Shown here piece by piece: positions 3,823-57,988 of a DNA stretch of 64,000 nt (position 1 is the stretch's first letter; each line of letters starts with the position of its first letter). The stretch is taken from assembly GCA_016793095.1 (NCBI GenBank), contig JAEUJQ010000037.1, positions 140,244 to 204,243 on the forward strand, written 5' to 3'. The position numbers and the translations under genes are program-made. This stretch comes from Myxococcaceae bacterium. GTDB taxonomy: Bacteria > Myxococcota > Myxococcia > Myxococcales > Myxococcaceae. A model generated the notes under the pieces. It searched no databases, was not told the DNA's origin, and saw nothing but the letters and a program-made list of their open reading frames with translations.

Positions 3823-3963
3823 GCCGGCGTCGCCGCGCTCCCTCACCGCTCACCTGATCGGAGCTCCGTCGCCTCGCGACCGGCATGGACCACCTGCGCC
3901 CGCCACGGCTCGACGGCATCGAATCAAGTGAGGCCGGTGCCAGCGCCTGTGCTGTGCCGTACC

Positions 3964-4530
3964 ATGCGCCTCTTCACCCCTGGCCTCGTCGTCGGGCTGC
4001 TCGTCAGCCACGTCGCCCGCGCGGGCGACTGTCAGACGCATCCGCTCAACGTCTACGAGCTGCAGGTCACGAGGTGCGAAGCCCTCGACGTGAAGAACGC
4101 GCAGAAGGTGAGCTTCTCGAATTCGCAGCTCGAGGCCCGGGGCGTGAAGCCGGCCGACGTTCAGGCCGCCTTCGCCGTGCTGGTGCTGCGAGCCGGCGCG
4201 GCCTTCGTCCTCGAGGGCACGCTCACACGTTCGACCCGCATCACCTTCGAGAGCGGCCTCCGCCATCCAGCATCGGCCCCGACCCCGCCCCAGGTGAGCG
4301 CCTGGCGCGTCGAGGACCGACCGGTGGCCGTCCTTCTGCAGCCGACCCCGTCCGCGAAGCCGGGCGTCGATGCCTGCTCGCAGTACGCGCGGGGCCCGAC
4401 GGTGCTGGTCGAGTTCCCGACCAATTGCTCCTGCGACACCGGACCGCTCAACGGCCAGTGGTGCTGGCTGAACGAGCGCGCCCCGGTCCGCGAGGCGGCG
4501 GCGGCGACGAAGAAGCTGCTGAAGCTCTGA
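3964..4530 (+). CDS. Hypothetical secreted protein. The signal peptide is MRLFTPGLVVGLLVSHVARA.
   Basis: ORF 3928..4530 (+). An internal Met gives a good signal peptide. It is Cys-containing. The composition is non-artefactual (K, F, N, Y present). No recognised domain. Confidence 0.5.
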   Translation: MRLFTPGLVVGLLVSHVARAGDCQTHPLNVYELQVTRCEALDVKNAQKVSFSNSQLEARGVKPADVQAAFAVLVLRAGAAFVLEGTLTRSTRITFESGLRHPASAPTPPQVSAWRVEDRPVAVLLQPTPSAKPGVDACSQYARGPTVLVEFPTNCSCDTGPLNGQWCWLNERAPVREAAAATKKLLKL

Positions 4531-4550: not shown

Positions 4551-5246
4551 TCAGGGCGGGTCCTTGCGAAAGACGTAGCCGCGCGAGCGCACGGTGACGA
4601 AGCGCCGCGGGTTCTCGGCGTCCTTCTCGAAGAGGCGCCGCAGGCGCACGATGAAATTGTCCACCGTGCGGTCGGTCGGGAACTCGTCCTGCCCCCAGGC
4701 GGCGTCGAGCACGTCGTTGCGCGAGAGCACCTGCCCCTCCTTCGAGAGGAACAGCTGCATCACCTTGCGCTCCTTCTCGCTCAGCACGGTCTCGCCTTCG
4801 CTGGTGTGCGCGATGCCGGTGTCGAGGTCGAGCCACCAGGGGCTCAGGTCGACGCGCTTCGTCGAGGGACTGGCGCCCGCGCCCTTTCGACGAAGCAGCG
4901 CGCGGATGCGGGCGAGCAGCTCTTCCGTGTGGAACGGCTTGGTGAGGTAGTCGTCGGCGCCGCAGTCGAGCCCGTGCACCTTGGCGCCTACGTCGTCGCG
5001 CGCCGTCAGCATCACGATGGGCAGCTCGTGGCCGGCCTTGCGGGCGAGCCGCGCCAGCTCGAAGCCATCGCCACCCGGCAGCATCACGTCGAGAATGGCC
5101 AACTGGTACGCGCCCGACAGCAGCGCGTCGCGGCCCTCGTTGAACGTGCCGGCGCGGCGCACCTCGAGGCCCATCTGCGACAGGTTGAGCGCCAGCATCT
5201 CCGACAGCAGCACGTCGTCTTCCACCAGCAACACCGGGACACTCAT
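4551..5246 (-). CDS. OmpR/PhoB-family two-component response regulator (receiver + winged-helix).
   Basis: VLLVEDD..., the receiver Asp in LAILDVMLPGGDGF, and the conserved Lys in GADDYLTKPF are all present. The C-terminal winged helix reads TVDNFIVRLRRLF..VRSRGYVF. Confidence 0.9.
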   Translation of the reverse strand: MSVPVLLVEDDVLLSEMLALNLSQMGLEVRRAGTFNEGRDALLSGAYQLAILDVMLPGGDGFELARLARKAGHELPIVMLTARDDVGAKVHGLDCGADDYLTKPFHTEELLARIRALLRRKGAGASPSTKRVDLSPWWLDLDTGIAHTSEGETVLSEKERKVMQLFLSKEGQVLSRNDVLDAAWGQDEFPTDRTVDNFIVRLRRLFEKDAENPRRFVTVRSRGYVFRKDPP

Positions 5247-9629: not shown

Positions 9630-12572
9630 ATGTCGGACGCGGTGGCACTGCTCGAGGCGGTCCGCGCTGAGGCGAAGCCCGGCGTCTGGTCGAACGGCGT
9701 GAAGCTCGCTCGCGCCGGCGCGGTCGTGCAGGAATCCGCGGACGGCGACGAGGTGGTGCTGCGCGTGAAGGCCGGCGGCCGCCCCGTGCCGTGGACGGTG
9801 GTGTTCTACCCGAAGGACGCGGCGTGGGAGTGCAACTGCCCGGCGCCGGTGGACCCGTGCGAGCACGCGGTGGCGGCCGCCATCACGCTGAAGGACGCGG
9901 CCGAGTCGGGCGTCGCGCTGGCCTCCGTCGAGGCGAAGTACGCGCGCGTCGTGTACCGCGTCGTGCGCCTGGAGAATGGCGTCCAGGTGCAGCGCTCCAT
10001 CGTGACGCCTGAGGGCGCCGAGACGCCCCTCGACTCGCTCGCCGCCGCCCTCGCGAACCCCGCGCTCGCGAAGCACCTGCAGGTGGAGCAGCACGACCTC
10101 CAGGCCGACCGGCTGCTCGAGAAGAAGACCCGGCTCGCGCTGCCGCCCGAACGCCTCGAGGCGCTGCTCGGCGTGCTCCAGCCCTGCCGCACGGTGCTGC
10201 TCGACGGCCGGCCGGTGGCCATCGCGGCCGAGCCCCTGCTGCCGAAGGTGACGGTGAAGGACGCCGGCGACGCCATCGTGGTGACGGTGGCGAAGGACGC
10301 GCGGGTGAGCGAGGTGCTGGCGCCGGGGGTCGCGCTGGCCGCCGACGCGCTCCACCGCCTCGGCGAGACGGCCTTCACGGGGCCCTGGCTCGAGCTCCTG
10401 CCGCAGGTGCGCAGCTTCCCCGCGAGCCAGGCCGGAGAGGTGAGCGCGAAGGTGGTGCCCGAGCTCGCCCAGCGCTTCCCCGTCGAGGTGTCCAGCACGC
10501 GCCTGCCCCGCATCGACCCGCGCCTCGAGCCGAGGGTGGTGCTCGAGGTGAACCAGCTCGAGCAGGGCCTCTCGGTGCTGCCCACGCTCGTCTACGGCGC
10601 GCCCGCCTGCGTGCGCATCGACAACGGCCGCATGGTGCACCTGCGCGGTCCGGTGCCCGTGCGCGACGAGGCGCAGGAGCAACGGCTCGTCCACCACCTG
10701 CGCGACACCTTGAACCTCGTGCCCGGCCGACGCACCACCGTGAGCGGCCCCGAGGCGGTGCGCTTCGCCGACTCGCTGCGTCGGTGGCGCGGCGGGCTCT
10801 CGGGCGACGCGGCGCGCAAGCTGTCCCCGGACATCACCCTGACGCCGAAGCTGCGCGTCGACGACCGGTCCTCCGCCGGCGCGCCATCGGTGGGCGTCAG
10901 CTTCGAGTTCGAGGTGCAGGGCGGCCCGCCCGACCTGCCGAAGACGGTCGACGGCGCCGCGGTGCTGCGCGCCTGGGAGGAGGGCTTCGGCCTCGTGCCC
11001 ATCGAGGGCGGCGGCTGGGCCCAACTGCCGACGGAGCTGCTCGAGGCCCAGGGCGCCCGCATCGCCGCGCTGCTCGCCGCCAGGCAGGAGAACGGCACCC
11101 TCGCCAACCACGCGCTGCCCCAGCTCGCGCAGCTCTGCGAGTCGCTCGACCAGCCGAAGCCTCCGGGCCTCGAGGCGCTGCGGCCCCTCGCCGAGGGCTT
11201 CGAGTCGCTGCCGCCGCCTGCGCTGCCGGTCGAGCTCACCGCGACGCTGCGGCCGTACCAGGCGCAGGGCGTGGCGTGGCTCCAGTTCCTCCAGCGCGCG
11301 GGGCTCGGCGGCGTGCTGGCCGACGACATGGGCCTCGGCAAGACGCTGCAGACGCTGTGCGTGCTGAAGAAGGGCGCGCTCGTGGTGTGCCCGACGAGCG
11401 TGCTGCCCACCTGGCTGGGCGAGCTGAAGCGCTTCCGGCCGTCCCTCTCCGTGAACGCCTACCACGGACCCGGCCGCGCGCTCGACGACGCCGACGTGAC
11501 GGTGACGACGTACGCCATCCTGCGGCTCGAGCTCACGAGCCTGTCCGCCCGCGAGTGGAGCGCCGTGGTGCTCGACGAGGCCCAGGCCATCAAGAACCCC
11601 GAGAGCCAGGCCGCGCGGGCCGCCTTCGCGTTGAGGTCCCCCTTCCGCCTCGCCCTCTCGGGCACGCCGGTGGAGAACCGCCTCGACGAGCTGTGGAGCC
11701 TGATGCACTTCACCAACCAGGGCCTGCTCGGCGGCCGCCGTGACTTCGACGAGAGGCTCGCGCGCCCCATCGCGGACGGCCGCCAGGACGCGGTCATCGA
11801 GCTGCGCAAGCGCCTCAAGCCCTTCGTGCTGCGCCGCCTGAAGAAGGACGTCGCGAAGGACCTGCCGCTGCGCACCGAGGTGGTCCGCCCCGTCACCCTC
11901 GACGAGCGCGAGCGCGCCACCTACGACGCGATTCACGCCGCCACGAAGGACGAGGTGGTGAAGCTGCTCGGCCAGGGCGGCAGCGTGCTCAAGGCGCTCG
12001 AGGCGCTGCTGCGGCTGCGGCAGGCCGCCTGTCACGTCGGGCTCGTGCCCGGCCAGCACGCGAAGACGTCGTCGAAGGTGCAGGTGCTCGTCGAGGCGCT
12101 CTCGACCGCGGTCGCCGACGGCCACAAGGCGCTGGTCTTCTCGCAGTGGACCTCTCTGCTCGACCTCATCGAGCCCGAGCTGACCGCCGCGGGCATCACC
12201 TTCTCGCGCCTCGACGGCTCCACGCCCGACCGCGGGGCCGTGACGAGCGCCTTCCAGGCCGAGGGCGGTCCCCCGGTGATGCTGCTGTCCCTCAAGGCGG
12301 GCGGCACGGGCCTCACGCTCACCGCCGCCGACCATGTCTTCCTCGTCGACCCGTGGTGGAACCCCGCCGTCGAGGCGCAGGCCGCCGACCGCGCCCACCG
12401 CATCGGCCAGGAGCGGCCGGTGCTCGTCTATCGCCTCGTCTCCCAGGGCACCGTCGAGGAGCGCATCCTCACCCTCCAGGACAAGAAGCGCGCGCTGTTC
12501 GAGGCGGCGCTCGGCGACGCACAGGCCGGCGGCGCCCTCACGAAGGACGACCTGCTCGAGCTGTTCTCCTGA
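9630..12572 (+). CDS. SNF2/RAD54-family DEAD-like helicase with an N-terminal SWIM-type zinc finger.
   Basis: The SWIM motif is [19 protein letters not shown]2_N motifs: [22 protein letters not shown]. Helicase C motifs: [40 protein letters not shown]. Confidence 0.9.
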
Positions 12573-21450: not shown

Positions 21451-21688
21451 GAGGGTGGGCTGCGGAGCTCGTGAGGGTGGGTTGCGGAGCTCGTGAGGGT
21501 GGGTTGCGGGGCTCGTGAGGGTGGGCTGCGGAGCTCGTGAGGGTGGGTTGCGGAGCTCGTGAGGGTGGGTTGCGGAGCTCGTGAGGGTGGGTTGCGGAGC
21601 TCGCGAGGGTGGGTTGCGGAGCTCGTGAGGGTGGGCTGCGGAGCTCGTGAGGGTGGGTTGCGGAGCTCGTGAGAGTGGGTTGCGGAGC
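21451..21688. repeat. Perfect or near-perfect tandem array of a 22-bp unit GAGGGTGGG(T/C)TGCGGAGCTCGT, about 10.8 copies, in a 1.3-kb divergent intergenic region.
   Basis: Read directly. Units differ only by C/T at position 10 and rare single substitutions. The array is followed by the 12-bp perfect palindrome GTGCACGTGCAC (about 21696..21707). No spacers are present, so this is not CRISPR. Confidence 0.9.
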
Positions 21689-21778
21689 GTGGGGGTGCAC
21701 GTGCACCGCGCCCTCAACTGATGTGAGCGGAAGCGCCCGAACGCACGGTCGGCGGCGCGTGCCCGGGCCGCGAGTCCT

Positions 21779-21815
21779 GCAATTCGTTGCGCCCGCCAAC
21801 ATTGTGCAGGACTCG
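21779..21815. repeat. Copy 1 of a dispersed 36-bp direct repeat pair (ATTCGTTGCGCCCGCCAACATTGTGCAGGACTCG).
   Basis: A second copy with 4 mismatches (GATTCGTTGCCGCCTCCAACATTCTGCAGGACTCG) lies about 124 bp downstream. Both are intergenic. Confidence 0.8.
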
Positions 21816-21902
21816 TGACGCCCGATCACCGCAGGCGCTCGCGCCCGCCGCACCACGCGACGCCTTCCGCAGGAGGAGCGGCTGTGGTCGTCGGGAGCCC
21901 GG

Positions 21903-21940
21903 CGATTCGTTGCCGCCTCCAACATTCTGCAGGACTCGCG
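21903..21940. repeat. Copy 2 of the 36-bp direct repeat pair.
   Basis: See copy 1. The sequences were compared by eye. Confidence 0.8.
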
Positions 21941-22340
21941 GTGGGCTCAGCCCGCCACCTGTGACGTACCGCGGTCGACAGTGGGAGAGGGCGTCACCCG
22001 ACGAGGTGGCGCGGCTGACAGGGTACGCCACGGGGCGGGAGATGCTGCAGGCCAACGCCGCGTTGCCCAGGCGGGATGAGTGGGTGGAGAAGCGGGCCAA
22101 GGCCCTCGTCGAGGAGCTGGGAGGGCGCAGGGAAGTGGTTCCAGAATCCGGTAGGCGCCTCGCAGCACTGAGCAGCGCGTGCGGACGGGTGCAGTCTCCT
22201 ATGGCTCTTCTGCCGGGCGAGGGCCCTGAGCGTCGCGTCGAGGGGCCTGACGTGACAGGGGGCGCTGGCCCGCGACGAGCGCTTCCGGGAACCAACGCAT
22301 GCCTGCAAGTGAGCGCGGGTTGCGGCATAAGGCGCGCGTC

Positions 22341-23270
22341 ATGCGTGGCTTCGCTGTCCTCTGCTTGCTCCTCACGGCCTGCGCCGCGAGCGACATCCGC
22401 GTTCCCGACGAGCACGTGGTCGCCGGATCGCGCGCGAAGGGTCGCGGCGTCGAGGTCTGTGTGCTGATGCAGGAGCGCTGGCCCCGCGCGCGCTTCGAAG
22501 GTGTCGCTGAGCTCTCGTTCGCGCGGTGGGACTACGGCATCGCCTCGGTCCTCGTGAAGCACCCCGACGGCCTCGTCGTCATCGACCCGGCGTTCGGCCG
22601 CGACGTGGTGCGGGACCTCGCGCGCGCGCCGATGCTGTTCCGCCTGGCCATGGGGCCGACACGGCTCAAGCGCCCCCTGCGAGACGTGATGGAGGAGGCC
22701 GGCCTCGACCCTGAGGCGGTGACGGTCGCGCTGCCGACGCACGTGCACTGGGACCACGTGGGCGCGCTGGGCGACCTGCCGAACGCCCGCGTGCTCCTGC
22801 CGCGCGCCGAGCTCGAGTGGGCCAACACCCTGAAGGGCTATCTGGACGGCGGCGCGATGCCGCACCACCTCGCCCGCGCGAAGGAGCGGCTGCGCCTGTA
22901 CGAGTTCGACGGCCCGGCGCGTGACGGCTTCCCGTCGTCCTTCGACGTCTTCAACGACGGCTCGATCGTCGCCGTCCCCCTGCCGGGCCACACGCCCGGG
23001 CACACTGCGTTCCTCGTGAAGCTCGTGGACGGCCGCTCCGCCCTCTTCGTGGGTGACGCCTCCTGGGCAATGCGCGGCGTCGAGGCGCCGGTGCACAAGC
23101 TGATTCCCCTCGACCACGACCACGCCCAGACGGGGGAGTCGCTCGGGCTCCTGCACGCCCTGTGGCAGCACCGGAAGGACGTGCTCGTCATCCCCGCGCA
23201 CGACGCTGCCGCCCACGACCAGCTGCCCTCGTGCGTCCCGCCGCCGGCGCCCGGCACGGTGACGCGATGA
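22341..23270 (+). CDS. Metallo-beta-lactamase-fold hydrolase lipoprotein (lactonase/MBL superfamily).
   Basis: Lipoprotein signal MRGFAVLCLLLTAC. MBL motifs HVHWDHVG (HxHxDH), ...LPGHTPGHTAF..., FVGDASW. ORF 22299..23270, with an internal ATG at 22341. Confidence 0.85.
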   Translation: MRGFAVLCLLLTACAASDIRVPDEHVVAGSRAKGRGVEVCVLMQERWPRARFEGVAELSFARWDYGIASVLVKHPDGLVVIDPAFGRDVVRDLARAPMLFRLAMGPTRLKRPLRDVMEEAGLDPEAVTVALPTHVHWDHVGALGDLPNARVLLPRAELEWANTLKGYLDGGAMPHHLARAKERLRLYEFDGPARDGFPSSFDVFNDGSIVAVPLPGHTPGHTAFLVKLVDGRSALFVGDASWAMRGVEAPVHKLIPLDHDHAQTGESLGLLHALWQHRKDVLVIPAHDAAAHDQLPSCVPPPAPGTVTR

Positions 23271-23540
23271 CCACACTCGCCCACGAGCCGACGTCGACCG
23301 TGACTGCCCGCCTGAACGGTGACGCAATGACGGTACTCGCCAGGCAGAAGCCGACATCGACCGTGACTCCCGCCCCCACGGTGACGCGATGACGACACCC
23401 GCCGCCCACGAGCCGACGGCGACCGTGACTGCCCGCCGGCACGGTGACGGCGCCTGGCTCGCGCCGCTCGCAGGACACGACCATCGGGAACGGGCGCGCC
23501 TCCTCCGACGGGCGGCACGGTGACGCGATGACGACGCTCG
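23254..23540. repeat. About 62-bp tandem repeat (3 full + 1 degenerate copies). Each copy is a miniature gene junction (…ACGGTGACGCG-ATGA-CGAC…), ending at the real start of the metal-binding protein gene.
   Basis: The units begin CACGGTGACGCGATGAC(C/G)AC(A/G)C.CGCC...GAGCCGAC.TCGACCGTGACTGCCCGCC. The first copy overlaps the stop of the MBL gene. The last copy is the true ATG (MTTLACLALL...). Confidence 0.85.
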
Positions 23541-24364
23541 CCTGCCTCGCGCTCCTCACCGCCGCGCCGCTCAAGGTGGGCGTCACCCTGCACCCGTACT
23601 TCTCGTGGACCTCGCAGGTGACGAAGGGGCTGCCCGTCGAGGTGGTGCCGGTGGTGCCGGGCGACGTCGACGTCGGCAGCTACCAGCCGCGCCCGCAGGA
23701 CGTGGCCGTGCTCACGACGCTCGACGTGCTGGTGGAGAACGGCCTGGGCCACGACGCGTTCCTCGACGAAATGGTGCGCGCGGCCGGCAACCCCCGCCTC
23801 GTGCGGGTGCGGCTCAACGAGGCCACGCCGCGGCTGGTGACGAAGGACGGCGACGGGCCGAACTCGCACACGTTCCTCTCGCTCGGCAACGCGATGGCCC
23901 AGTCGTACACGCTGGCGCGCGCGCTCGCCGAGGTGCGACCCGACTGGCGGCGGCAGCTCGAGGCCAACGCCGCGACGTATGCGAAGCGGCTCCGGACGCT
24001 GCGGGCGGGCGCGGTGCGGGCCCTCGCGCCGGTGAAGGAGCGCCGCGTCGTCACCGTGCATGACGGCTACTCGTACCTGCTTCAGGAGCTGGGCCTCGAG
24101 CTGGCCGCAGTCGTAGAGCCTGCGCACGGGCTCTTGCCGTCGGCCGGCGAGCTGGCCGAGGTGGTGAGGCTGCTCCAGGCGAAGCAGGCCCGGGTGGTGT
24201 TCTCGGAAGAGTCGTTCCCGCCGGCGATGGCCGAGGTGCTGCGCGAGGCGGGCGCGCAGGTGGTGGTGGTGAGCCACATCGCGACCGGCGACTTCACGCC
24301 CGAGCGCTTCGAGGTGGAGCTGCAGCAGAACCTCGACGCCATCATCGGAGCGATGACGCGATGA
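23527..24364 (+). CDS. Metal (Zn/Mn) ABC transporter periplasmic substrate-binding protein, ZnuA/TroA (cluster A-I) family.
   Basis: Signal MTTLACLALLTAAPL. LHPYFSW, DVGSYQPRPQDVAVL, DVLVENGLGHD, HTFLS, VVTVHDGYSYLLQELGLE, AKQARVVFSEE. These are typical of the ZnuA/TroA family. The Zn-versus-Mn specificity cannot be decided. Confidence 0.8.
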
Positions 24365-24690
24365 CGACCGTGCTGTCGGCGCAGCAGGTGGCGGTGGCCG
24401 ACTCCACGCCCGAGCGCTGCGGAAGTGGAGCTGCAGCAGAACCTCGACGCCATCATCGGAGCGATGACGCGATGACGACCGCGCTGTCGGCGCAGCAGGT
24501 GGTCGGCGCCTCCACGCCCGAGCGCTTCGAGGTGGAGTTGCAGCAGAACCTCGACGCCATCATCGGAGCGATGACGCGATGACGACCGCGCTGTCGGCGC
24601 AGCAGGTGGTCGGCGCCTCCACGCCCGAGCGCTTCGAGATGGAGCTGCAGCAGAACCTCGACGCCGTCATCGGAGCGATGACGCGATGAC
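24290..24690. repeat. Tandem array (111 + 107 + 107 bp, then the authentic copy) duplicating the junction between the substrate-binding-protein gene 3' end and the ABC ATPase gene 5' end.
   Basis: Unit: ACGACCGCGCTGTCGGCGCAGCAGGTGGTCGGCGCCTCCACGCCCGAGCGCTTCGAGGTGGAGTTGCAGCAGAACCTCGACGCCATCATCGGAGCGATGACGCGATG. Each unit encodes a 36-aa chimeric mini-ORF (MTTALSAQQVVGAS+TPERFEVELQQNLDAIIGAMTR) whose TGA overlaps the next ATG (ATGA). Confidence 0.85.
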
Positions 24691-25294
24691 GACCGTGCTG
24701 TCGGCGCAGCGGGTGGCGGTGGCGGGCCGGCTCGCGCCGCTGTCCCTCACGCTGTCGCCCGGCGACGTGCACGCGCTGGTCGGGCCGAACGGGTGCGGCA
24801 AGTCGACGTTCCTGGACTGCGTCCTGGGGCTGCAGCCCTTCGACGGAACGCTCTCGCTCCTCGACGGGATGACGGTGGCCATGGTGCCGCAGGCCTTCAC
24901 GGGCTCCTCGACCTCGGCCGTTACCGTGCTCGAGCTCCTCGCTGCCTCGCGCACCACCCGGCCCTCGTGGCTCGGCCTGTCCGCCCGGGTCCGCCAGCAG
25001 TGCCTCGACGCCCTGGCGTTGACGAACGCGGCCGGTCTGGCCCCGGCGCGGCTGGCGACGCTCTCAGGTGGGGAGCTTCGCCGGGTCCTCCTGGCCGACG
25101 CGCTGGCGAAGCGGCCGGGCCTGCTGCTGCTGGACGAGCCCGAGGCCGGCCTCGATGACGCCTCTCGCGTGACGCTCGAGCGGGCGCTGACGGACGCCCG
25201 CGCATCGGGAGTGACGACCCTGTGGGTCTCGCACGACGCTGCCGCCGTGCAGCGGCTCGCGACGCACACCACGCGGGTGGGAGCGCCGGCATGA
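24686..25294 (+). CDS. ABC transporter ATP-binding protein (ZnuC-like).
   Basis: Walker A GPNGCGKST, signature LSGGELRR, Walker B LLLLDEPEAGLD, H-loop VSHD. ATGA overlap with the permease gene. Confidence 0.8.
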   Translation: MTTVLSAQRVAVAGRLAPLSLTLSPGDVHALVGPNGCGKSTFLDCVLGLQPFDGTLSLLDGMTVAMVPQAFTGSSTSAVTVLELLAASRTTRPSWLGLSARVRQQCLDALALTNAAGLAPARLATLSGGELRRVLLADALAKRPGLLLLDEPEAGLDDASRVTLERALTDARASGVTTLWVSHDAAAVQRLATHTTRVGAPA

Positions 25295-26115
25295 ACGAGT
25301 TGTTGGCGCTCGACTTCGTGAAGCGCGCGCTCCTCGCGGTGCTGCTGGCGGCGCCGATGCTGGGGTTGTTGTCTCCGCTCGTCCTCTCGCGGCGGCTCGC
25401 CTTCTTCTCGGCTGCGCTGGGGCAGGCCGTGCTCACTGGAGTGTCTCTGGGCATCCTCCTCGGAGAGCCCGCCGACGCGCCCTGGGCCAGCGTCTTCGGC
25501 TTCTCGCTGCTGTGCGGCGTGGGCCTCGTCTTCGTGCGCCGCCGCTCGTCGCTGCCGCCGGACACGCTGGTCGGCGTGCTGCTCGCCTTCACGCTCGGCC
25601 TCGGCGTGCTGCTGCTGGTGGTGGTGACGAAGCGCTTCAACGTGCACCAGCTCGAGGCGGTGATGTTCGGCTCGGTGCTGACGGTGACGCGGGCCGACCT
25701 CGTGGTGCTCGCGGTCGCGCTGGTGGTGGTGCTGGCGGGCCTCGTGCGCTTCCACAACGCCCTGCTGCTCGACGCCCTCGACGCCCGGGTGGCCGCCGCG
25801 GCGAAGCTGCCTTCGGCGGCGCTGGAGTACGGGCTGGTGGTGCTGCTCACCGTCGTCATCGTCGCCTCGGTGAAGGTGCTGGGCGCGTTGATGGTCGAGG
25901 CGATGCTGCTGGTGCCAGCGGCCGCGGGCCGGAACGTCGCCCGGAGCGTCGCGGGCCTCACCCTGGCGAGCGTGGTGGTGGCGTGCGTGAGCGCCGTCGG
26001 AGGCGTGCTCGTCTCTGCGCGCCTCAACGCGCCATCGGGCGCCGCCATCGTGCTGCTCCTCGCGGCGGCCTTCGTGCTGACGCTGCCGTTCTCGCGCCGA
26101 CATGAGTCGCGCTGA
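25291..26115 (+). CDS. ABC transporter permease (ZnuB/ABC-3 family).
   Basis: About 8 hydrophobic helices. The start MNELLALDFVKRALLAVLLAAPMLGLLSP is typical of ZnuB/MntB-type permeases. It uses an internal ATG of ORF 25222..26115. Confidence 0.8.
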   Translation: MNELLALDFVKRALLAVLLAAPMLGLLSPLVLSRRLAFFSAALGQAVLTGVSLGILLGEPADAPWASVFGFSLLCGVGLVFVRRRSSLPPDTLVGVLLAFTLGLGVLLLVVVTKRFNVHQLEAVMFGSVLTVTRADLVVLAVALVVVLAGLVRFHNALLLDALDARVAAAAKLPSAALEYGLVVLLTVVIVASVKVLGALMVEAMLLVPAAAGRNVARSVAGLTLASVVVACVSAVGGVLVSARLNAPSGAAIVLLLAAAFVLTLPFSRRHESR

Positions 26116-31423: not shown

Positions 31424-32587
31424 ATGCTCCTCATCGCGACGCTGGCTGCTGTGCTGGCACAGTCACCGGCTCCGACGTTGGCCGATCAAGCTCGCAAGGC
31501 CGACGGCGACACGAACCCGAAGATGGCCGTGCCTGACTTCACTACCACCGCCGGCAACGAGTCGCTCGCCGCGATGCTGGCGGGGTCGGTGGCGACGGAG
31601 ATCGATCGAACGGGCCTCTTCCAGGTCACCACGTCGGATCAGGTGCGCTCGCTCCTCTCGCTCGAGCGCCAGCGCCAGCTGCTCGGGTGCAACGACGACA
31701 GCTGCACGTCGAACATCGCCGGCCAGCTCGGGGTGGACTTCCTGGTGAACGGGCGCCTCACGCGGCTCACCGACCCGAAGAAGGCCACCACCGGGCTCAC
31801 GCTCGACCTGTCCATCGTCGAGGTGAAGTCGGGCAAGCGCGTCAGCTCGCGGGAGGTGAGCGGTACCAGCGAGGCCGATCTCGTGGGCAGGCTGACCGAG
31901 AACGTGGCGGCGCTCATCGCCCCGCTGCTGTCGGGCCGACAGGGCTTCATCGTCGTCATCGCGTCCGAAGACGGCTCCGTGGTGAAGGTCGATGGCACCC
32001 AGCTCGGGACGACGCCGATGACGCAGCGCCTCGCCGTGGCGGGCGGCCCTCACGTGCTGCGCATCGAGAAAGCCGGCTTCACGTCGGTGCAGAAGCAGGT
32101 TCGCGTCGCCCCGGACCAGGTCACCGAAGAGTCGATTCGCCTGGTGCCGAGCCCCGACTTCATCGACGCCTATGAGAAGAAGCAGTGGGGGCTGCGCATC
32201 GGCGCCTTCATCGCCACCGGGCTCGCCGTCGCGGGCATCGCGACCTTCGCCGTGATGCAGGGGCAGGCGCAGGCCTCGTACGGAGACCCCTCGTGCCCCG
32301 CCGGCGCAGGCGGCCTGCCCACCTGCTTCGCCGGGCTGCGCGCCTCGCTCGTCAGCATGGAGGACGCGTCGGTTCGCCAGGCTGCCGAGGCGATGAGGAA
32401 CCGCATCAACAGCCAGCTCGCCATCTCGTACGTGGCCGGGGGCGTCGGGCTCGCGTCGGCGGTGGCGGCGACAGTGCTGTTCCTCATCGGCGACGACCCG
32501 AACCGCTACCAGTCGTACCGGGGCCCGAAGACGTCGGCCTGGCTGCTCCCCTCGGGAGCCGGCGGCGTGTTCGCCTGGGACTTCTGA
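31424..32587 (+). CDS. PEGA-domain membrane/secreted protein. It has a signal peptide, a TolB-N/CsgG-like N-terminal domain, a PEGA domain and a C-terminal TM region.
   Basis: An internal Met gives MLLIATLAAVLAQSPA. The PEGA module is VKVDGTQLGTTPMTQRLAVAGGPHVLRIEKAGF. The C-terminal hydrophobic segments are GAFIATGLAVAGIATFAV and GVGLASAVAATVLFLIG. Confidence 0.65.
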   Translation: MLLIATLAAVLAQSPAPTLADQARKADGDTNPKMAVPDFTTTAGNESLAAMLAGSVATEIDRTGLFQVTTSDQVRSLLSLERQRQLLGCNDDSCTSNIAGQLGVDFLVNGRLTRLTDPKKATTGLTLDLSIVEVKSGKRVSSREVSGTSEADLVGRLTENVAALIAPLLSGRQGFIVVIASEDGSVVKVDGTQLGTTPMTQRLAVAGGPHVLRIEKAGFTSVQKQVRVAPDQVTEESIRLVPSPDFIDAYEKKQWGLRIGAFIATGLAVAGIATFAVMQGQAQASYGDPSCPAGAGGLPTCFAGLRASLVSMEDASVRQAAEAMRNRINSQLAISYVAGGVGLASAVAATVLFLIGDDPNRYQSYRGPKTSAWLLPSGAGGVFAWDF

Positions 32588-38459: not shown

Positions 38460-40394
38460 TCAGCGCTCTGGACGCAGGGCGACGGTGTACGTCCGGTGCG
38501 AGACGAACTCGCTCCCGAGGCGCAGAGCCCAGGCGGCCTCGGTGAGGCAGGCACCCATCGATGAAGAGGTCTCCGTCACCTCGACCTCCACCACCTCGTC
38601 ACCGGTCGCCTCGAGCGTGAGGGTCGACGCCGCGGGCTCGCCGAGCCGCGCCACACAGGCGGCCACGCCCGGCGCCAACAGGGCCCGCAGGAGCCCCTCG
38701 AAGTCCACCGCGCGCCGCACGACTCCGATTCCGCAGCGCGAGCTGGTGCCGCAGCCGCTGCAGCCGATGCCGTGCATGCTGAGCCCGCGCATGGTGCCCT
38801 CCGCGAGCCCAGCGGTGGAGGGAGCAGCCGTCGGCGGCGCTGCGAGCAGGGACGTCTCTGGTGACACCGCCTGAGCGAGGAAGGCGGCGGAGCGAAGCTC
38901 GTCGCTGCTCAACTGCCCGCGCAGGTCATCGAAGCCCACCGCGAGGCCGGGCAGGCGCTTCAACAGCGCGCGGTCGAGCGTCACGTCACGCCGGAACTCC
39001 CGTGCCCAGATGCGCCCGGTGAGCGTCACCTGCTCGGGGGGCTCCGCGTCGACGCCGTGCAGCCGCACCATCGTCCCTTCGTCGAGCTGCGGGTCCAGGC
39101 CGAGGTCGGGCAGCCGCTCGCCGCTCACGGTGAGGCCATCGATGCGCACCGGCCGCACGAGCCCGAGCAAGGTGCGCGCGGCTCTGGCGACATCGGCGGG
39201 AGCTCCGGCCACGCGCACGAAGATGCCACCCGTCGCCTCGGCGACGTCCGCGAGCGGCGCGTCGTCGTCCCGGCGCTCGATGAGGGTTCCGCGGACCTCG
39301 CCGGTGCGTCGCACGACGTGCGCCACGGTGCCGGCGGGCGCCTTCGCGAGCGCGTCGATGGCGGCCTGCGCAGAGAAGCCGTCGCGGAGCAGCTCGTCGG
39401 TGAAGAGCACCACCCGGCCGGCGCCACCCGCCTCCGCGAGCGCCCCTGCTGCCAGCGCAGCGCCCACGTCGAGGTTCGAGCCATTGCCCGGGGCGAGGCG
39501 CTCGGGCGGCGTGGCTGCGAGCAGGCCCGGCACGTCGACGGCGGGCACGAAGCGGCCGAAGAGGCGCTCGGCGAAGCGGCGCGTGAGGACGAGCTCGACC
39601 CGCGCATCGGGCACGTTGGCGAGGTACGGGGCCAGCAGCTCGAGCTGCGCAGCGATGCCGGCCGGTCCCTCGCTGTGGGAGGCGTCGACGACGAAGACGA
39701 CGTTCGGCGCGACGGGCGCCGTCCCCAGCAGCGGCGCGGCGTCGACCTCGAGGCGCCACAGCGTGCGGTCGGTGTCGAGCTGCGCGACGGCCCAGCGCAC
39801 GTCGGCGATGGGCTGCGTCTGGTGCTGCCGCCGCACCACGTAGCCGTCCACTGTCTCCTCGGCGGTCGCGCGGTCGAAGCGCGGCGGCAGCGCGCCGTCT
39901 TCGCGGGGAAGGTCGAACACCAGGACGCCCGCCTCGTAGCGGGGTGCGACGTGGAGCTCGTACGCGACGGTGACGGTCTCCCGCGGCGGCAGGCCGAACA
40001 GCTCGAGGTCGAGCCCTCCCGAGAAGCTCCACTCGAGCTTCCCGATGGGGTCTGGCTGCGCCTCACCCGGGCTGGTGAGGAAACCCCACTGGTCGGCGAC
40101 CTGCTCCTGCGTCGAGAGGCGGGCTGGCACCAGCACGTCGGCGCGGCGCAGGCTCAGCGAGGTGGCCACCACGCCGTCAGGGAGCGGCAGGTGTCTGGTG
40201 AGCGACTGCACCACGTCGTCGTCGTTGCGGAACTGCCGCTGCACCTCGAGCCGCGCGCCGCCCTCCTCGAAGTGCACCTCGACGATGTGGCTCACCTCGG
40301 TGACGCCTGCGCCGCGTCGCTGGAGGCCGGTGAGGTCGTCGGGGCCGCAGGCGACGAGGGCAGGCACCGCGAGGGCGAGGGCGAGCGTGCGCAT
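38460..40394 (-). CDS. Large lipoprotein with a vWA-like domain.
   Basis: An internal Met gives MRTLALALAVPALVACG (lipobox). VVFVVDASHSEG is a MIDAS-like motif. The ORF track gives 38460..40598. Confidence 0.6.
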   Translation of the reverse strand: MRTLALALAVPALVACGPDDLTGLQRRGAGVTEVSHIVEVHFEEGGARLEVQRQFRNDDDVVQSLTRHLPLPDGVVATSLSLRRADVLVPARLSTQEQVADQWGFLTSPGEAQPDPIGKLEWSFSGGLDLELFGLPPRETVTVAYELHVAPRYEAGVLVFDLPREDGALPPRFDRATAEETVDGYVVRRQHQTQPIADVRWAVAQLDTDRTLWRLEVDAAPLLGTAPVAPNVVFVVDASHSEGPAGIAAQLELLAPYLANVPDARVELVLTRRFAERLFGRFVPAVDVPGLLAATPPERLAPGNGSNLDVGAALAAGALAEAGGAGRVVLFTDELLRDGFSAQAAIDALAKAPAGTVAHVVRRTGEVRGTLIERRDDDAPLADVAEATGGIFVRVAGAPADVARAARTLLGLVRPVRIDGLTVSGERLPDLGLDPQLDEGTMVRLHGVDAEPPEQVTLTGRIWAREFRRDVTLDRALLKRLPGLAVGFDDLRGQLSSDELRSAAFLAQAVSPETSLLAAPPTAAPSTAGLAEGTMRGLSMHGIGCSGCGTSSRCGIGVVRRAVDFEGLLRALLAPGVAACVARLGEPAASTLTLEATGDEVVEVEVTETSSSMGACLTEAAWALRLGSEFVSHRTYTVALRPER

Positions 40395-40682
40395 GAACGC
40401 CGGGACACCACGAACGTCCCCGGTGTTCCGGGAATCGGCACGGGTCGTCTGCGGGCTTCCCCAGACGCCCAGCAAGCCGCGGGGTCGGCGAGCCCCACAC
40501 CGGGCGGAGCGCAGCAGGCGCCACACTCCGGGCAAAGGCCACCTTCCGTGCGGGAGGCTGAGACAACGCAGCTCCTCGCGCAGCGCTGCGGAACTCAACC
40601 CCAGCCTCGCGGCTTTCGTGTAGACGACGCCGCGCTCGCGCCCCTCGGGCCCCTCATCGAGCTCACCTCCCAGCTGGGCCTC

Positions 40683-40802
40683 GGCGGACGTCTCGGTGCC
40701 AGCGGCAAGGTGAAGTCGACCGCGCAGCGACGCGCGGCCTCGGCGGACGTCCCGGCGCCAGCGGCAAGGTGAAGTCCACCGCGCAGCGACGCGCGGCCTC
40801 GG
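40683..40802. repeat. 60-bp tandem duplication (2 copies, 4 mismatches) in the 5' region upstream of the vWA lipoprotein gene.
   Basis: CGGCGGACGTC(T/C)CGG(T/C)GCCAGCGGCAAGGTGAAGTC(G/C)ACCGCGCAGCGACGCGCGGCCT occurs twice back to back. Confidence 0.85.
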
Positions 40803-40816
40803 CGGGCGCGGCGAGC

Positions 40817-41263
40817 TCAGCCGGGCAGCGGGAGCTTCAGGAACATGAGGGCGCGGGTGAGGCGCTCGAGGGCCGCCAGCGCAGCGGGCTCGAGGGCGTT
40901 GGCCTTCGCGAGCGCGCGGGCCTCACGCAACGCCCCGGCGTCATCGGTCAGCCCCATCGCGTCAGCGAGGGCGCGCCGGCGCGTGAGCACCTCGTCGATG
41001 AAGGCGCGCGCCTCCTCCTCGGTGATGCGCCCCGCCGCGAGCTCGGCGAGGACGAGGCAGTTGAACTCACGGCAGATCCGCGGACGGTCGTCGTAGATGG
41101 TGCAGCGAACGCCGTCGAGCGCGCGGCAGGGGAACTCCATGGTGTCGGCGTCCAGCACGCTGACGCGCTCTGCGAGGCGTGCGGCCTCGCCTGGCGCGAG
41201 GGGCGCCGTGGCGAACAGCGTCCCGTCACAGCACACGCCGCAAGACAGACAGAGCGCGCTCAT
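40817..41263 (-). CDS. YkgJ-family putative Fe-S/zinc-chelating protein (CxxCxxCC motif).
   Basis: MSALCLSCGVCCDGTLF... matches the CxxCxxCC signature of the UPF0153/YkgJ family. The start was chosen at an internal Met of ORF 40817..41425. Confidence 0.6.
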   Translation of the reverse strand: MSALCLSCGVCCDGTLFATAPLAPGEAARLAERVSVLDADTMEFPCRALDGVRCTIYDDRPRICREFNCLVLAELAAGRITEEEARAFIDEVLTRRRALADAMGLTDDAGALREARALAKANALEPAALAALERLTRALMFLKLPLPG

Positions 41264-53419: not shown

Positions 53420-55230
53420 GGCAGCACCTCCCACGCCTGCAGCACCCGCGCGCTGCACTTCAGCTCGTCATCATCGACCTCGATGGCGACGAAGAGCCGC
53501 TCGCCCGAGGTGAACGTCGCCGGGGCGAGGGCGTCGCCTGCGCGCGCGTCGACCCGCGTGGGCTCGGTGTCCGAGATGCCTGCCTGCCAGGGCGCAGTCG
53601 ATGCGGTCAGCCCGCGCCACCGCGTCACCGGCTGGCCGTGCCTCGACAACCGGAACCTCACCTGCGTCTGGCCGCCACCCCGGGGCACCAGCTCGTACGC
53701 GCCCTGGTAGCCGAGCGGGCCGCCAGCGTTGCGCCGCGCTGCCTCCGCGCGCTCGATCAGCCTGGCGAAGTCCACCTTCTTCTCGGTGAGCAGCGCCGGC
53801 AGCTTCTCTTCGAAGAGCACGTCGCGGAAGCTCTCGTGCGGCTTCACGAAGGTGCGGCGCGCGAGCTCGATGACGGCGCCCTCTCCGAGCTCGTCGACGA
53901 GCGCGTCCACGAGGGTGAAGCTGATGCCCATGCCGAAGCAGTCTCCAGCCCGCTCGAAGGTCTCGTCCCACCGGGCGATGGCCTGCGGCGACAAGCTCAC
54001 GGGAGAGGCCGCCGCGCGACGTCGCAGCAGCGCGCGCGCCTCTGCGTCGCCGCGCGTGTTCCAGTAGGAGGCGAAGCCGTCGAGCAGCCAGTGGCGGTCC
54101 TCCTCGAGGGCGCGGTGGTCGGTGTGGTCGCCGACGATGGAGTGGAGGATGCGGTAGCGCAGCATCAGCGGGTCGAAGCGGGGGTCAGCGACGTTCGCCC
54201 GGAAGACGTGCCCGTCTTTCTCGCCGAGGGGTACGCGCAAGACGATGTCGGGGTCGAGGCCACGCTGCGAGACGACGTAGACGCCAGCGAGCTTCGGGTA
54301 CTCCATCGCCTGCACGAAGGTGACGACGTCGATGGCGATGGCCTCGACGAGGGCCTGGGCCTGCGCGTCGCTGACGCCCTCGCCGGGGAGGACGCCGATG
54401 GGGCCGACGGGTGAGTCCTTCGGGATCACGGACTCGAGCGCGAAGGCCGGCCGGTCGCGGTCCCGGGTGAGGACACTGAAGAGCATGAAGCCCACGAGCA
54501 ACGTGCTCGCCGAGAAGATGCGCTCCCGCGACGTCATGCGCCCCGAGAGCGTGGTGGCGATGGAGCCCTCGCCCACGACCGGCAGCACGAGGCCCACCAG
54601 CAGGCCCACCCCGATGACGAGCGAGCCCACCACCACGTCGATGGCCTCGGGCCAGGCGTTCGCGACGGCGAGCGACTCGGAGGCGAGGCGGAACGGAGGC
54701 GTCTGCATCACCACGAGCTGGCCGACGGTGTCGAGGCCGTAGACGAAGAGGCCAGAGACGACCCAGAAGAGCAGCCGGTAGCGGCCGAGCAGGCCCGCGA
54801 CGAAGCACACGGCCCAGAAGCACGTCATCCACAACACCGCGGGCACCAGGGCGTAGAGCGCGTCGAGGGGCGGCACCGGCGTCGTCTTCGCCTGCCACCA
54901 CCACGTCGCGGCCCAGGCGGACGTCACGGAGAACGTCACCCAGGCCCAGCCGACGAGCCACTTGGTGACGACGACCCGCAGGCGGCTGATGGGCAGGGTC
55001 TCGAGGAAGAGCTGCGTCTTGCCGGTGTACTCGCGAACGACGAGGCGGTTGCCGGCGACCAGCGCGGCGACGAGGCCGTAGGTGAGGACGAAGGCCTTGA
55101 GCGCCGCGAAGCGCCCACCCTCCTCGTCTCCGCGGCTCAGCGACACCGCGAGCCCGAGGCCGAACAGCACGAAGAGGACGGCGAACACCCAGCCGTGCTC
55201 CCGCAGCTCCTTGAAGACGATTCGCCTCAT
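53416..55230 (-). CDS. ABC-2-type permease-like membrane protein, a paralog of the downstream gene with a degenerate C-terminal domain lacking HEXXH.
   Basis: It starts MRRIVFKELREHGWVFAVLFVLFGL, parallel to the VNGTLLSKELRALRPYV start of the next gene, followed by multiple TM helices. The C-terminal about 300 aa is soluble. ATGA-type overlaps link the three genes. Confidence 0.7.
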   Translation of the reverse strand: MRRIVFKELREHGWVFAVLFVLFGLGLAVSLSRGDEEGGRFAALKAFVLTYGLVAALVAGNRLVVREYTGKTQLFLETLPISRLRVVVTKWLVGWAWVTFSVTSAWAATWWWQAKTTPVPPLDALYALVPAVLWMTCFWAVCFVAGLLGRYRLLFWVVSGLFVYGLDTVGQLVVMQTPPFRLASESLAVANAWPEAIDVVVGSLVIGVGLLVGLVLPVVGEGSIATTLSGRMTSRERIFSASTLLVGFMLFSVLTRDRDRPAFALESVIPKDSPVGPIGVLPGEGVSDAQAQALVEAIAIDVVTFVQAMEYPKLAGVYVVSQRGLDPDIVLRVPLGEKDGHVFRANVADPRFDPLMLRYRILHSIVGDHTDHRALEEDRHWLLDGFASYWNTRGDAEARALLRRRAAASPVSLSPQAIARWDETFERAGDCFGMGISFTLVDALVDELGEGAVIELARRTFVKPHESFRDVLFEEKLPALLTEKKVDFARLIERAEAARRNAGGPLGYQGAYELVPRGGGQTQVRFRLSRHGQPVTRWRGLTASTAPWQAGISDTEPTRVDARAGDALAPATFTSGERLFVAIEVDDDELKCSARVLQAWEVLP

Positions 55231-56738
55231 GCCGCGGGTTGCAGGGCGTCGGTGCGGGCGAACGCGAGGAAGACGTCTTCGAGGGAGAGGGACTCGATGA
55301 CGGTGCCCTCGGGCCAGACGGTGGACCGCCAGAGCTCCGGCGGCGCGCGCACGACGTCCCCACGAACGATCTCGAAGCCGGGCGGGAGCACGTGGGGCGC
55401 CACCAGCCCGGGAGCGGCGGACACGAGCCGCGGCTCGCCAGGAACCGGCGGGACGGCGGCGGCGGCAGGCTCCCCGGGGGCAATGCCGGTCTCGACGGCG
55501 GACGAGCCGATAGCGGACGACCCGCGCCCCGCCGGCTCACGTGCGGCCGACTCACGTGCGGCCGACTCACGTGCGGCCGGCTCACGTGCGGCCGACTCAC
55601 GTGCGGCCGACTCACGTGCGGCCGGCTCACGTGCGGCCGGCTCACCTGCGGCCGACTCACTAGCGACCGACTCACCTGCGGCCGACTCACCTGCGGCCGA
55701 CTCACCTGCGGCCGACTCACGTGCGGCCGACTCACCTGCGGCCGACTCACCTGCGGCCGACTCACGTGCGGCCGACTCACCTGCGGCCGACTCACCTGCG
55801 GCCGACTCACCTGCGGCCGACTCACGTGCGGCCGACTCACGTGCGGCCGGCTCACCTGCGGCCGACTCACGTGCGGCCGGCTCACCTTCGGCCGACTCAC
55901 CAGCGACCGACTCACGTGCGTCCGGCTCACCTTCGGCCGACTCGCTCATGGCCGACTCATTTGCAGCCGACCCGACCGCACCCGGGGCGACGGCGCGCGG
56001 CGCCACGGAAGCGGCTCGGGCATCGGGCGCCGGCCACCTCACGCGCCGCACCGACTCGAGCAGCCACGGCACCTCGCCCTCGATGCGCATCTTCCCCGAG
56101 TGGATGATGCCGACGCGGTGCGCGACCTGCTGCACCTCGTCCACCAGGTGCGACGAGAGGAACGCCGTGCAGCCGCGCTCCTTCACGATGACCGAGACGA
56201 GGTCATTGAACTCGCGGCGCGCGACCGGGTCGAGGCCGGTGGTGGGCTCGTCGAGCAGCAGCAGCTCGGGGCGCGGCGCCAGGGCGAGCGCGAGGCCCAG
56301 CTTGGTGCGCGTGCCGCCGGACAGCTCCATCGCGCGCTTGTCGAGCGGCACGTCGAGCAGCTTGCAGAGGCGCTCGAACTCCGGCCCGTCCCACGTCGGG
56401 TAGAAGCCCGCGACGAAGCGGCCCAGCTCGCGCCCGCTCATCCACGGGTAGAAGTGCTGCTCCTGCGAGACGGAGCCGATGCGCCGCTTCAGCTCGACCG
56501 GCACCTTCTTCACCTGCTGGCCGAGCACCTCGACCGTGCCCGCGTCCGCGTGCAGCACGCCGGTGAGGATGCGCAGCGTCGTCGTCTTGCCCGCGCCGTT
56601 GCGGCCGAGGAAGCCGTAGATCTCTCCGCGCTTCACCGCGAGCGAGAGGCCGTCGAGGGCGATGGCGCGCCCGAAGCGGCGCTTCACGTCGGTCAGCTTC
56701 AGGGCGTCGGTCACGCGCCGGAGTATGGGGGAGCCCAC
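55227..56738 (-). CDS. ABC transporter ATP-binding protein with a roughly 145-aa (A/G)ESA(A/R) pentapeptide-repeat insertion before the C-terminal EDVFL segment.
   Basis: Walker A GRNGAGKTT, Q-loop, signature LSGGTRTKL, Walker B LLLLDEPTTGLD, H-loop SSHL. The start is GTG near 56738 or 56713, which is uncertain. The ORF track merges it with upstream antisense artefact (55227..57911). Confidence 0.8.
   Translation of the reverse strand: MGSPILRRVTDALKLTDVKRRFGRAIALDGLSLAVKRGEIYGFLGRNGAGKTTTLRILTGVLHADAGTVEVLGQQVKKVPVELKRRIGSVSQEQHFYPWMSGRELGRFVAGFYPTWDGPEFERLCKLLDVPLDKRAMELSGGTRTKLGLALALAPRPELLLLDEPTTGLDPVARREFNDLVSVIVKERGCTAFLSSHLVDEVQQVAHRVGIIHSGKMRIEGEVPWLLESVRRVRWPAPDARAASVAPRAVAPGAVGSAANESAMSESAEGEPDARESVAGESAEGEPAARESAAGEPAARESAARESAAGESAAGESAAGESAARESAAGESAAGESAARESAAGESAAGESAAGESVASESAAGEPAAREPAARESAARESAAREPAARESAARESAAREPAGRGSSAIGSSAVETGIAPGEPAAAAVPPVPGEPRLVSAAPGLVAPHVLPPGFEIVRGDVVRAPPELWRSTVWPEGTVIESLSLEDVFLAFARTDALQPAA
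55531..55975. repeat. In-frame 15-bp tandem repeat (GCCGACTCAC(G/C)TGCG, about 29 copies) inside the ABC ATPase gene.
   Basis: Read directly. On the coding (minus) strand it encodes ...AGESAARESAAGESAAGESA.... Units vary at 1-2 positions (G/C and ggc/gac). Confidence 0.9.
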
Positions 56739-56780
56739 GACGGGCAGGAAGCAATGGCGCAGGTCTGATGAAGTGGCCCC

Positions 56781-57761: not shown

Positions 57762-57988
57762 CCGCGCAGCACCAGACCTCGCGCGCGGTTTCACTCGCGA
57801 CGAGGCGCTCGATGAGCAACCGGATTCGCCGCGAGCCTGCGGCCGGTCCTTCGCCTGCGCGACGACGCCGCTGACATTGCACGCTGGCGATTCACGGCGA
57901 CAGCCATGCACGAGTTGAATAGGGACCGGAGTTCGTCGGAACGCCGCGGAAGCAGGTCACGCTCGCGGCGAGAGCGAACGGGAGACTG

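Follow-up and report, generated by a model that had tools for sequence, protein, structure and literature searches.

We analysed a 64-kb stretch of DNA (the window) from contig JAEUJQ010000037.1 of a Myxococcaceae bacterium and found that, in an operon predicted to encode a metal ABC importer, the junction between the znuA-like and znuC-like genes is present in four head-to-tail copies, whose stop and start codons form a chain of small open reading frames (ORFs) between two intact genes. The explanation that we favor, with a probability of about 0.72, is that this array is a lineage-specific, recurrent and tolerated tandem segmental duplication across the overlapping stop and start codons of two cistrons. 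The operon (22299-26115) consists of four co-oriented genes, which a Pfam search identified as encoding a metallo-beta-lactamase-fold protein (MBL) and ZnuA-like, ZnuC-like and ZnuB-like proteins; the coordinates of these genes and of the features described below are collected in Table 1.

Tandem Repeats Finder (TRF) described the sequence at 24286-24716 as 4.0 copies of a 107-bp period with 93% matches, and a repeat search returned four copies with start-to-start spacings of 111, 107 and 107 bp. These results bear out the initial annotation of this DNA in its description of three extra junction copies that give rise to chimeric ORFs, with the head of znuC joined to the tail of znuA, chained by ATGA overlaps. 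The 107-bp unit comprises the last 23 codons of znuA and the first ~13 codons of znuC, and the copies occupy approximately 24286-24396, 24397-24507, 24508-24614 and 24615-24723. Each junction start codon (at 24361, 24472, 24579 and 24686) lies within the sequence GCGATGACGCGATGAC, found at 24350, 24461, 24568 and 24675, and the longer junction module listed in Table 1 recurs at 24458-24475, 24565-24582 and 24672-24689, with the GGAG 10 nt 5' of the ATG kept in every copy. The true 3' end of znuA makes up the left half of copy 1, and the true 5' end of znuC makes up the right half of copy 4. These end copies run unbroken into the authentic genes, the inner znuC-to-znuA joins are novel, and the resulting insert between znuA and znuC measures 322 nt.

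The copies have diverged from one another by 3-6 substitutions per 100 nt in pairwise comparison. Copy 2 carries a clustered change of GCTTCGAGGTGG to GCTGCGGAAGTGG, with a net gain of 1 nt, as well as a 3-nt indel, and copy 4 carries two non-synonymous changes in its 23 tail codons. The joins between copies 2 and 3 and between copies 3 and 4 are identical, which indicates that amplification was stepwise. As the duplicated stretch of ZnuA falls within the conserved PF01297 domain (the match reaches residue 272 of 278 and covers profile positions 2-260 of 263), and as orthologues share these gene ends, the unit was made from the genes and not the genes from the unit. The only homology that can be proposed for the original breakpoints is of the GGC/CCGGC type and at most 5 nt long, the first join having since mutated. 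The repeat search found no further copies of the 107-bp unit elsewhere in the window. An RNA element was considered and rejected, as no Rfam family reached its gathering score in the window and the array folded no better than shuffled sequences (z = -1.65). An internal promoter or terminator was likewise rejected; no sigma-70-like promoter sites were found in the arrays, and terminator-like sites occurred only inside znuB.

Not every copy forms a complete coupled ORF of 36 codons, as had initially been proposed. The +1 frameshift in copy 2 leaves one ORF of 73 codons and one of 36 codons, with the chain of stop and start codons unbroken. In the 73-codon ORF, in which two units are fused, the second ZnuA tail is read out of frame, the ATG at 24472 is passed in frame and translation would end at the stop codon at 24582. 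The operon can accordingly be written as an unbroken chain of znuA -ATGA- 73 aa -ATGA- 36 aa -ATGA- znuC -ATGA- znuB, with the overlaps within the array at 24361, 24579 and 24686. At each ATGA the stop and start codons overlap and a ribosome-binding site lies inside the upstream ORF, as expected of coupled cistrons, and the sequence of every copy retains this coupling architecture. The 73-codon ORF corresponds to the NCBI hypothetical protein JNJ54_14990; it had no Pfam match, and its sole match among 5.8 billion proteins was itself. The 36-codon ORF at 24579-24689 had no Pfam match either. The encoded peptides are not conserved, given the copy-2 frameshift, the two non-synonymous changes in copy 4 and the lack of Pfam matches and homologues, and they appear to have no role of their own.

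We compared the locus with 160 related loci in which the operon is syntenic, and with closer relatives (L161-L168) obtained by a protein search. The first two scans covered 21 loci with at least 59% ZnuA identity, and in 19 of these the znuA/znuC junction was tight (-3 to +9 nt, by extrapolation), the exceptions being L007 (41 nt) and L008 (125 nt). Alignment with related genomes, which had been suggested as a check on the array, showed the znuA/znuC junction to be single-copy in all relatives at 95, 93, 91 and 88% ZnuA identity, indicating that the array arose in the lineage of the window. As the copies differ from one another by 3-6%, whereas the synonymous distance (dS) to the nearest relatives is 0.28-0.52, the array is young, roughly ten-fold younger than those splits. 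The locus shows these features of a tandem segmental duplication: head-to-tail copies, a novel join, ends continuous with unique flanks, and a single copy in relatives.

A second, degenerate and older tandem array, built from the junction between the MBL end and the znuA start, lies one boundary upstream and was not mentioned in the initial annotation, nor were its chained mini-ORFs. At 23248-23449 TRF reported a period of 62 with 3.3 copies and 76% matches; the units of the array measure 60, 62, 63 and ~76 bp, and each opens with ACGGTGACG. The MBL stop codon and the znuA start codon are separated by 257 nt, the last 67 nt of which resemble the MBL 3' end with a score that was reached by 9 of 1000 shuffles. 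Of the two mini-ORFs here, the 44-codon one stops 4 nt before the znuA ATG at 23528.

Independent junction duplications were also found in relatives, at other boundaries of the operon. In L161-L163 (ZnuA 95%), both the MBL/znuA and the znuC/znuB junctions are duplicated and znuA/znuC is single, except that MBL/znuA is not covered in L163, whose contig ends inside the znuC/znuB duplicate. All three junctions are single in L164 and L165 (93%); MBL/znuA and znuA/znuC are single in L168 (91%), where the contig is too short to include znuC/znuB; and in L166 and L167 (88%) these two junctions are single and znuC/znuB holds a decayed duplicate. At MBL/znuA, L161 and L162 have one extra copy (L161 4843-5040; TRF period 95, 2.1 copies) with start codons 92 nt apart, producing a 31-aa chimera, MTTLACLALLAAA followed by HDLLPSCVPPSAPAMVTR, in which the znuA head is fused in frame to the MBL tail. 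At znuC/znuB they likewise have one extra copy, of 110 nt (L161 6376-6587; TRF period 110, 1.9 copies), producing a chimera of ~36 aa, VNELLALDVMKRAMRQR followed by SHDANALKRATNTPRLGGPP, in which the znuB head is fused to the znuC tail. The similarity of both L161 arrays to the flanking gene ends was reached by 0 of 1000 shuffles. In L166 and L167 the znuC/znuB junction (L167 1508-1630; L166 3471-3593) contains a decayed 40-codon ORF with ATGA overlaps at both ends, which is still similar first to the znuB head and further on to the znuC tail (p = 0.003 and 0.03) and by eye looks like two decayed junction units fused. All three boundaries of the operon have therefore been hit by junction duplication across closely related lineages, and in all five arrays the stop codon of each mini-ORF either overlaps the following start codon or precedes it by 4 nt.

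Because the left boundary (CACGA...) and the variant GGTGACGCGATGA are common to the MBL/znuA arrays of the window and of L161, these two arrays may descend from one event; by synonymous distances, the window and L161 lineages are not clearly sisters. L161 and L162 come from separate sequencing runs and are identical over 5183 bp, and L163, from a third run and with 6 differing sites (a slightly different strain), holds the start of the L161-type znuC/znuB duplicate. L166 and L167 are identical over their overlap. Such agreement is a strong argument against an assembly artefact for this class of structure. TRF over 1.27 Mb of related loci revealed no other junction duplicates; the other tandem repeats of the 160 related loci turned out to be coding repeats, duplications of gene 3' ends or repeats at the end of the operon.

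In the model that we propose, one illegitimate event at very short homology (at most 5 nt) would have joined approximately codon 13 of znuC to the codon 23 positions before the end of znuA, and unequal recombination or slippage between copies would then have raised the number to four. Such an insert would be tolerated because the unit straddles the gene boundary, so that a full znuA on its left and a full znuC on its right stay intact. Each extra copy would bring its own GGAG, inside the znuA tail, and its own ATGA overlap, and so create a decoy ORF composed of a znuC head and a znuA tail. A ribosome ending translation of znuA could then restart on the decoy ORFs, end exactly at the next start codon and in this way reach znuC over the 322-nt insert, and this relay would keep the insert covered by ribosomes. 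An effect of the array on coupling or polarity is plausible from its layout. The copies themselves are decaying like non-functional sequence.

Several points weigh against this explanation or limit it. Sequence is the sole basis for proposing that the mini-ORFs are translated and coupled to znuC; the exact homology at the breakpoint is beyond reconstruction, copy 2 having mutated since; and the array of the window, with its copy number and its copy-2 frameshift, is known from one assembly, a metagenome-assembled genome (MAG). The closure of the ORF chains is weakly informative, as a simulation of all junction-spanning duplications on the array-less sequence of L164 gave closed chains with probabilities of 0.66 at MBL/znuA, 0.66 at znuA/znuC and 0.33 at znuC/znuB. 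Finally, recurrence at this operon exceeds what pure neutrality predicts. Two of its three junctions are expanded in the window, compared with none of ~12 other tight same-strand junctions (p ~0.03 in a Fisher test calculated by hand on a rough gene map), which leaves room for a hotspot or selection, and the window is rich in tandem repeats, with eight of a period of at least 25 bp in 64 kb (TRF). Either duplications arise here more readily, at a local hotspot, or selection allows changes of this class to persist at this operon; such a hotspot is possible, and so is selection acting on polarity or on the stoichiometry of the subunits.

Selection on the arrays themselves is the strongest competing explanation, although we consider it an improbable one. 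Under it, the junction copy number would be an adaptive and possibly reversible rheostat of expression, with each extra stop and restart step lowering or otherwise setting the translation of the downstream transporter subunits relative to the binding protein; in a variant, the copies could protect the operon from Rho-type polarity. Such a role is favored by the occurrence of five junction expansions among three lineages that are close relatives, with each of the three boundaries of a single operon affected, and by the lack of any other young junction duplicate in the window or in the 1.27 Mb of related loci. The start-to-start distances are also all 2 mod 3 (single units of 107, 92, 110 and 62 nt, and 119 nt for the whole L167 spacer), which is the one class in which the native in-frame stop codon is used again (p ~0.04-0.01 for three or four independent events), and all chains are closed, for which the chance is ~0.05 with four independent arrays. 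We regard these closure and spacing figures as suggestive, and not as proof, of a filter for preserved coupling. However, the statistics are marginal and the events are perhaps not all independent, as the MBL/znuA arrays of the window and L161 illustrate; the copies gain frameshifts and substitutions instead of homogenising; and the relatives at 93% and 91% do well without any expansion.

An assembly artefact, in which strain variants or mis-assembled reads were concatenated in the MAG, is very unlikely to account for the array. The array is indeed seen in that assembly only, and faulty polishing could account for the clustered change in copy 2, but the join of the znuC head to the znuA tail is absent from a single-copy locus, so that neither collapse nor concatenation of alleles can produce it. 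Moreover, the copies are diverged, and the analogous arrays of relatives are identical across independent runs. We give still less credence to a mobile or dispersed element resembling the interspersed repetitive units of mycobacteria (MIRUs), which would insert at start codons with its own coupled ORF. Like MIRUs (PMC12548453), the arrays are made up of tandem units, here of 60-110 bp, that sit between cistrons and point the same way as these, and the ORFs of the units share 4 nt with the stop and start codons on either side. However, the unit at znuA/znuC consists of local gene ends (a segment of the ZnuA C-terminal domain and the ZnuC N-terminus) that are conserved in orthologues, it has no other copies in the window, and the unit sequences at different boundaries are unrelated except for an ancestral 13-nt motif. 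We give equally little credence to a role of the mini-ORFs as genes for functional micro-proteins, such as a free C-terminal helix of ZnuA acting as a modulator of the transporter, for while they are open, are preceded by Shine-Dalgarno-like sequence and include one annotated gene, open frames are expected by chance at the 72% G+C of the window, copy 2 is frameshifted, two amino acids are changed in the 23 tail codons of copy 4, no Pfam match or homologue was found, and the chimeras of relatives derive from different gene ends and are unrelated in sequence.

The ancestral motif, ACGCGATGACGAC, had been taken as a sign that the arrays arose by recombination among homologous junction sequences. 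It is indeed present at the MBL/znuA and znuA/znuC boundaries: the window contains eight matches with at most one mismatch, compared with 0.35 expected, seven of which lie at those boundaries and in the repeat copies. The eighth, at 31952-31964 on the minus strand, appears to be antisense within a plus-strand ORF (rough gene map). This enrichment is explained by the position of the motif in repeat copies and in ancestral gene ends. The proposed origin did not hold, as the ends of the units lie ~40-75 nt from the motif and every array draws its units solely from the gene ends next to it. In relatives that have no array, the motif also occurs at the same boundaries: L164 has it at both, as GCTGCGATGACGACG at MBL/znuA and GACGCGATGACGACG at znuA/znuC, and L168 has GACGCGATGACGACG at znuA/znuC, with GGCCCCGTGACGTCG at MBL/znuA instead. 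The motif reflects an ancestral arrangement of gene ends, Arg-stop and Met-Thr-Thr, and is not the breakpoint.

Table 1. Positions in the window of the junction arrays, their mini-ORFs and the genes of the operon.
Feature	Position	Strand	Evidence
Array of 4 head-to-tail copies of the znuA-end/znuC-start junction	24286..24723	+	TRF, repeat search, alignment
Junction module GGAGCGATGACGCGATGA: Shine-Dalgarno-like GGAG 10 nt before ATG, TGA codons in two frames	24347..24364	+	sequence
Mini-ORF, 73 codons, two units fused by the copy-2 frameshift, ATGA overlaps at both ends	24361..24582	+	ORF listing
Mini-ORF, 36 codons (MTTALSAQQVVGASTPERFEMELQQNLDAVIGAMTR), start of znuC joined in frame to end of znuA, an ATGA overlap on either side	24579..24689	+	ORF listing
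Degenerate older tandem array of the MBL-end/znuA-start junction	23248..23527	+	TRF, repeat families D6, D19, D20, alignment
Mini-ORF, 41 codons (MTTLAHEPTSTVTARLNGDAMTVLARQKPTSTVTPAPTVTR), ATGA overlaps on both sides (MBL stop codon; following mini-ORF)	23267..23392	+	sequence; frame of ORF 23162..23392
Mini-ORF, 44 codons	23389..23523	+	ORF listing; sequence
MBL gene (metallo-beta-lactamase-fold), operon gene 1	22299..23270	+	PF00753, E=7e-18
znuA-like substrate-binding protein gene, 278 aa, intact	23528..24364	+	PF01297, E=1e-40, residues 18-272
znuC-like ABC ATPase gene, 202 aa, intact	24686..25294	+	PF00005, E=6e-21
znuB-like permease gene	25291..26115	+	PF00950, E=5e-46

From the adjacency, shared orientation and synteny in relatives of its PF01297, PF00005 and PF00950 genes, the operon is predicted to encode a cluster-9 (ZnuABC-type) metal ABC importer. 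All four genes are under purifying selection, with ratios of non-synonymous to synonymous substitution (dN/dS) of 0.08-0.28, including 0.08-0.15 for znuA and 0.27 for znuC, which is of equal length in orthologues. The MBL gene, which is kept upstream of znuA in relatives, has its probable start at the ATG at 22341 and ends in ACGCGATGA, and the ZnuA protein is a 100% match to an NCBI MAG protein. The znuC/znuB boundary of the window has an ATGA overlap and a single-copy junction. The N-terminus of ZnuA (23528-23570), MTTLACLALLTAAPLK, has a hydrophobic segment that is unusually short for a periplasmic binding protein and an n-region without positive charge; the short segment is kept in relatives.

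In more distant relatives we observed spacers without repeats. In the sister lineages L007 and L008 (~72% ZnuA identity), the two boundaries that are expanded in the window hold spacers of 40-190 nt free of repeats (L007 6817-6856; L008 6811-6934 and 5784-5973), and the znuA/znuC spacers contain coupled mini-ORFs and weakly resemble the end of the upstream gene. The znuA/znuC and MBL/znuA spacers of L007 and L008 and the znuC/znuB spacer of L013 showed weak similarity to the flanking gene ends (p ~0.02-0.03). The znuC/znuB spacer of L010 matched the start of znuB (0 of 500 shuffles) and showed no match to the end of znuC, and shuffle tests found no similarity to the flanking gene ends in the spacers of L014 (znuC/znuB) and L066 (znuA/znuC). 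The repeat-free spacers of L007, L008, L010, L013, L014 and L066 could be fully decayed duplicates, although apart from the L010 match to the znuB start the similarity was weak or absent.

Other repeats were found upstream of the operon and elsewhere. A divergent intergenic region of 1.3 kb, flanked by the MBL gene and by a minus-strand Ser/Thr kinase-like ORF (whose orthologue in relatives has a Pkinase domain), is likely to be the control region of the operon. It contains 10.8 copies of a 22-bp unit (GAGGGTGGGTTGCGGAGCTCGT) with 95% identity at 21451-21688; at the equivalent place L004 has a different array, of 3.8 copies of a 59-bp unit (4732-4954). Also upstream of the operon, a partly palindromic motif (ATTCGTTGC...CAACATT[G/C]TGCAGGACTCG) occurs twice, ~125 nt apart, at ~21770-21815 and 21895-21940, and it could be an operator or a small element of the repetitive extragenic palindromic (REP) type. 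At 40677-40805, 2.2 tandem copies of a 59-bp unit (95%), a length that is not a multiple of 3, lie inside the minus-strand ORF 38460-40922. At 55531-55943, 27.5 copies of a 15-bp unit read as SAAGE/SAARE pentapeptides in the C-terminal region of the long minus-strand ORF 55227-57911, which also has an ABC-ATPase-like segment with a Walker A-type GRNGAGKTT. Among the related loci, L014 has 2.0 copies of a 184-bp unit (97%) at 10915-11287 across the stop codon of a plus-strand gene, which is left intact and which, read by eye, we take to be fatty-acid-desaturase-like. In L149, from an unrelated metagenomic bacterium, 3.8 copies of a 79-bp unit (99%) at 3871-4168 directly follow the znuA stop codon; this array is non-coding and faces a convergent gene.

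With regard to known systems, the closest functional analogue is the mycobacterial MIRUs, which are tandem units of tens of bp located between operon cistrons in the orientation of the genes (Supply et al. 1997, as summarised in PMC12548453), and which insert at start codons with the repeat ORF coupled to the gene at -4 spacing, minimising the impact on expression (PMC12548453). The units at znuA/znuC are similarly intercistronic, in tandem and in the orientation of the genes, and their small ORFs overlap the neighbouring stop and start codons by 4 nt. However, MIRUs are a dispersed and apparently mobile family unrelated to its flanks, whereas the unit described here is a local copy of the flanking gene ends, in a myxobacterium, with an array seen in one assembly and one copy in the nearest relatives (88-95%). 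Duplications of the minisatellite or variable-number tandem repeat type share with these arrays the single novel join, the unique flanks, the absence from orthologous loci, stepwise amplification and mutational decay, but here the unit straddles an overlapping stop and start codon, creating chained chimeric ORFs, and the event recurs at all operon boundaries in sister lineages. The arrays would also resemble leader ORFs and bicistronic designs, in which a short ORF whose product has no role and whose ATGA lies on the real start codon delivers ribosomes (PMC12548453), but differ in that they are natural, born by junction duplication and iterated two to three times in series. Our literature searches found no described class of junction-spanning duplications beyond the MIRU analogy, and the arrays are best filed as minisatellite-type tandem duplications of unusual, self-healing placement.

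Tandem duplications are usually destructive in compact operons, but a unit that straddles the stop and start codons regenerates both genes together with its own coupling signal. For annotation, small hypothetical proteins such as JNJ54_14990 are explained as decoys created by junction duplication. With five expansions among three sister lineages, this operon provides a natural series of 0-3 extra modules that could serve to measure the efficiency of a ribosome relay by termination and reinitiation, and to see whether uninterrupted translation shields long inserts between cistrons from polarity. Junction duplication also offers a concrete possible route to coupled intercistronic repeat ORFs such as those of mycobacterial MIRUs. 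More speculatively still, and with little confidence on our part, junction-spanning duplication might be a distinct, recurrent and possibly selected form of operon remodelling, in which module copy number would set downstream stoichiometry and shield inserts from polarity, and whose locally born modules could be an evolutionary source of MIRU-type elements.

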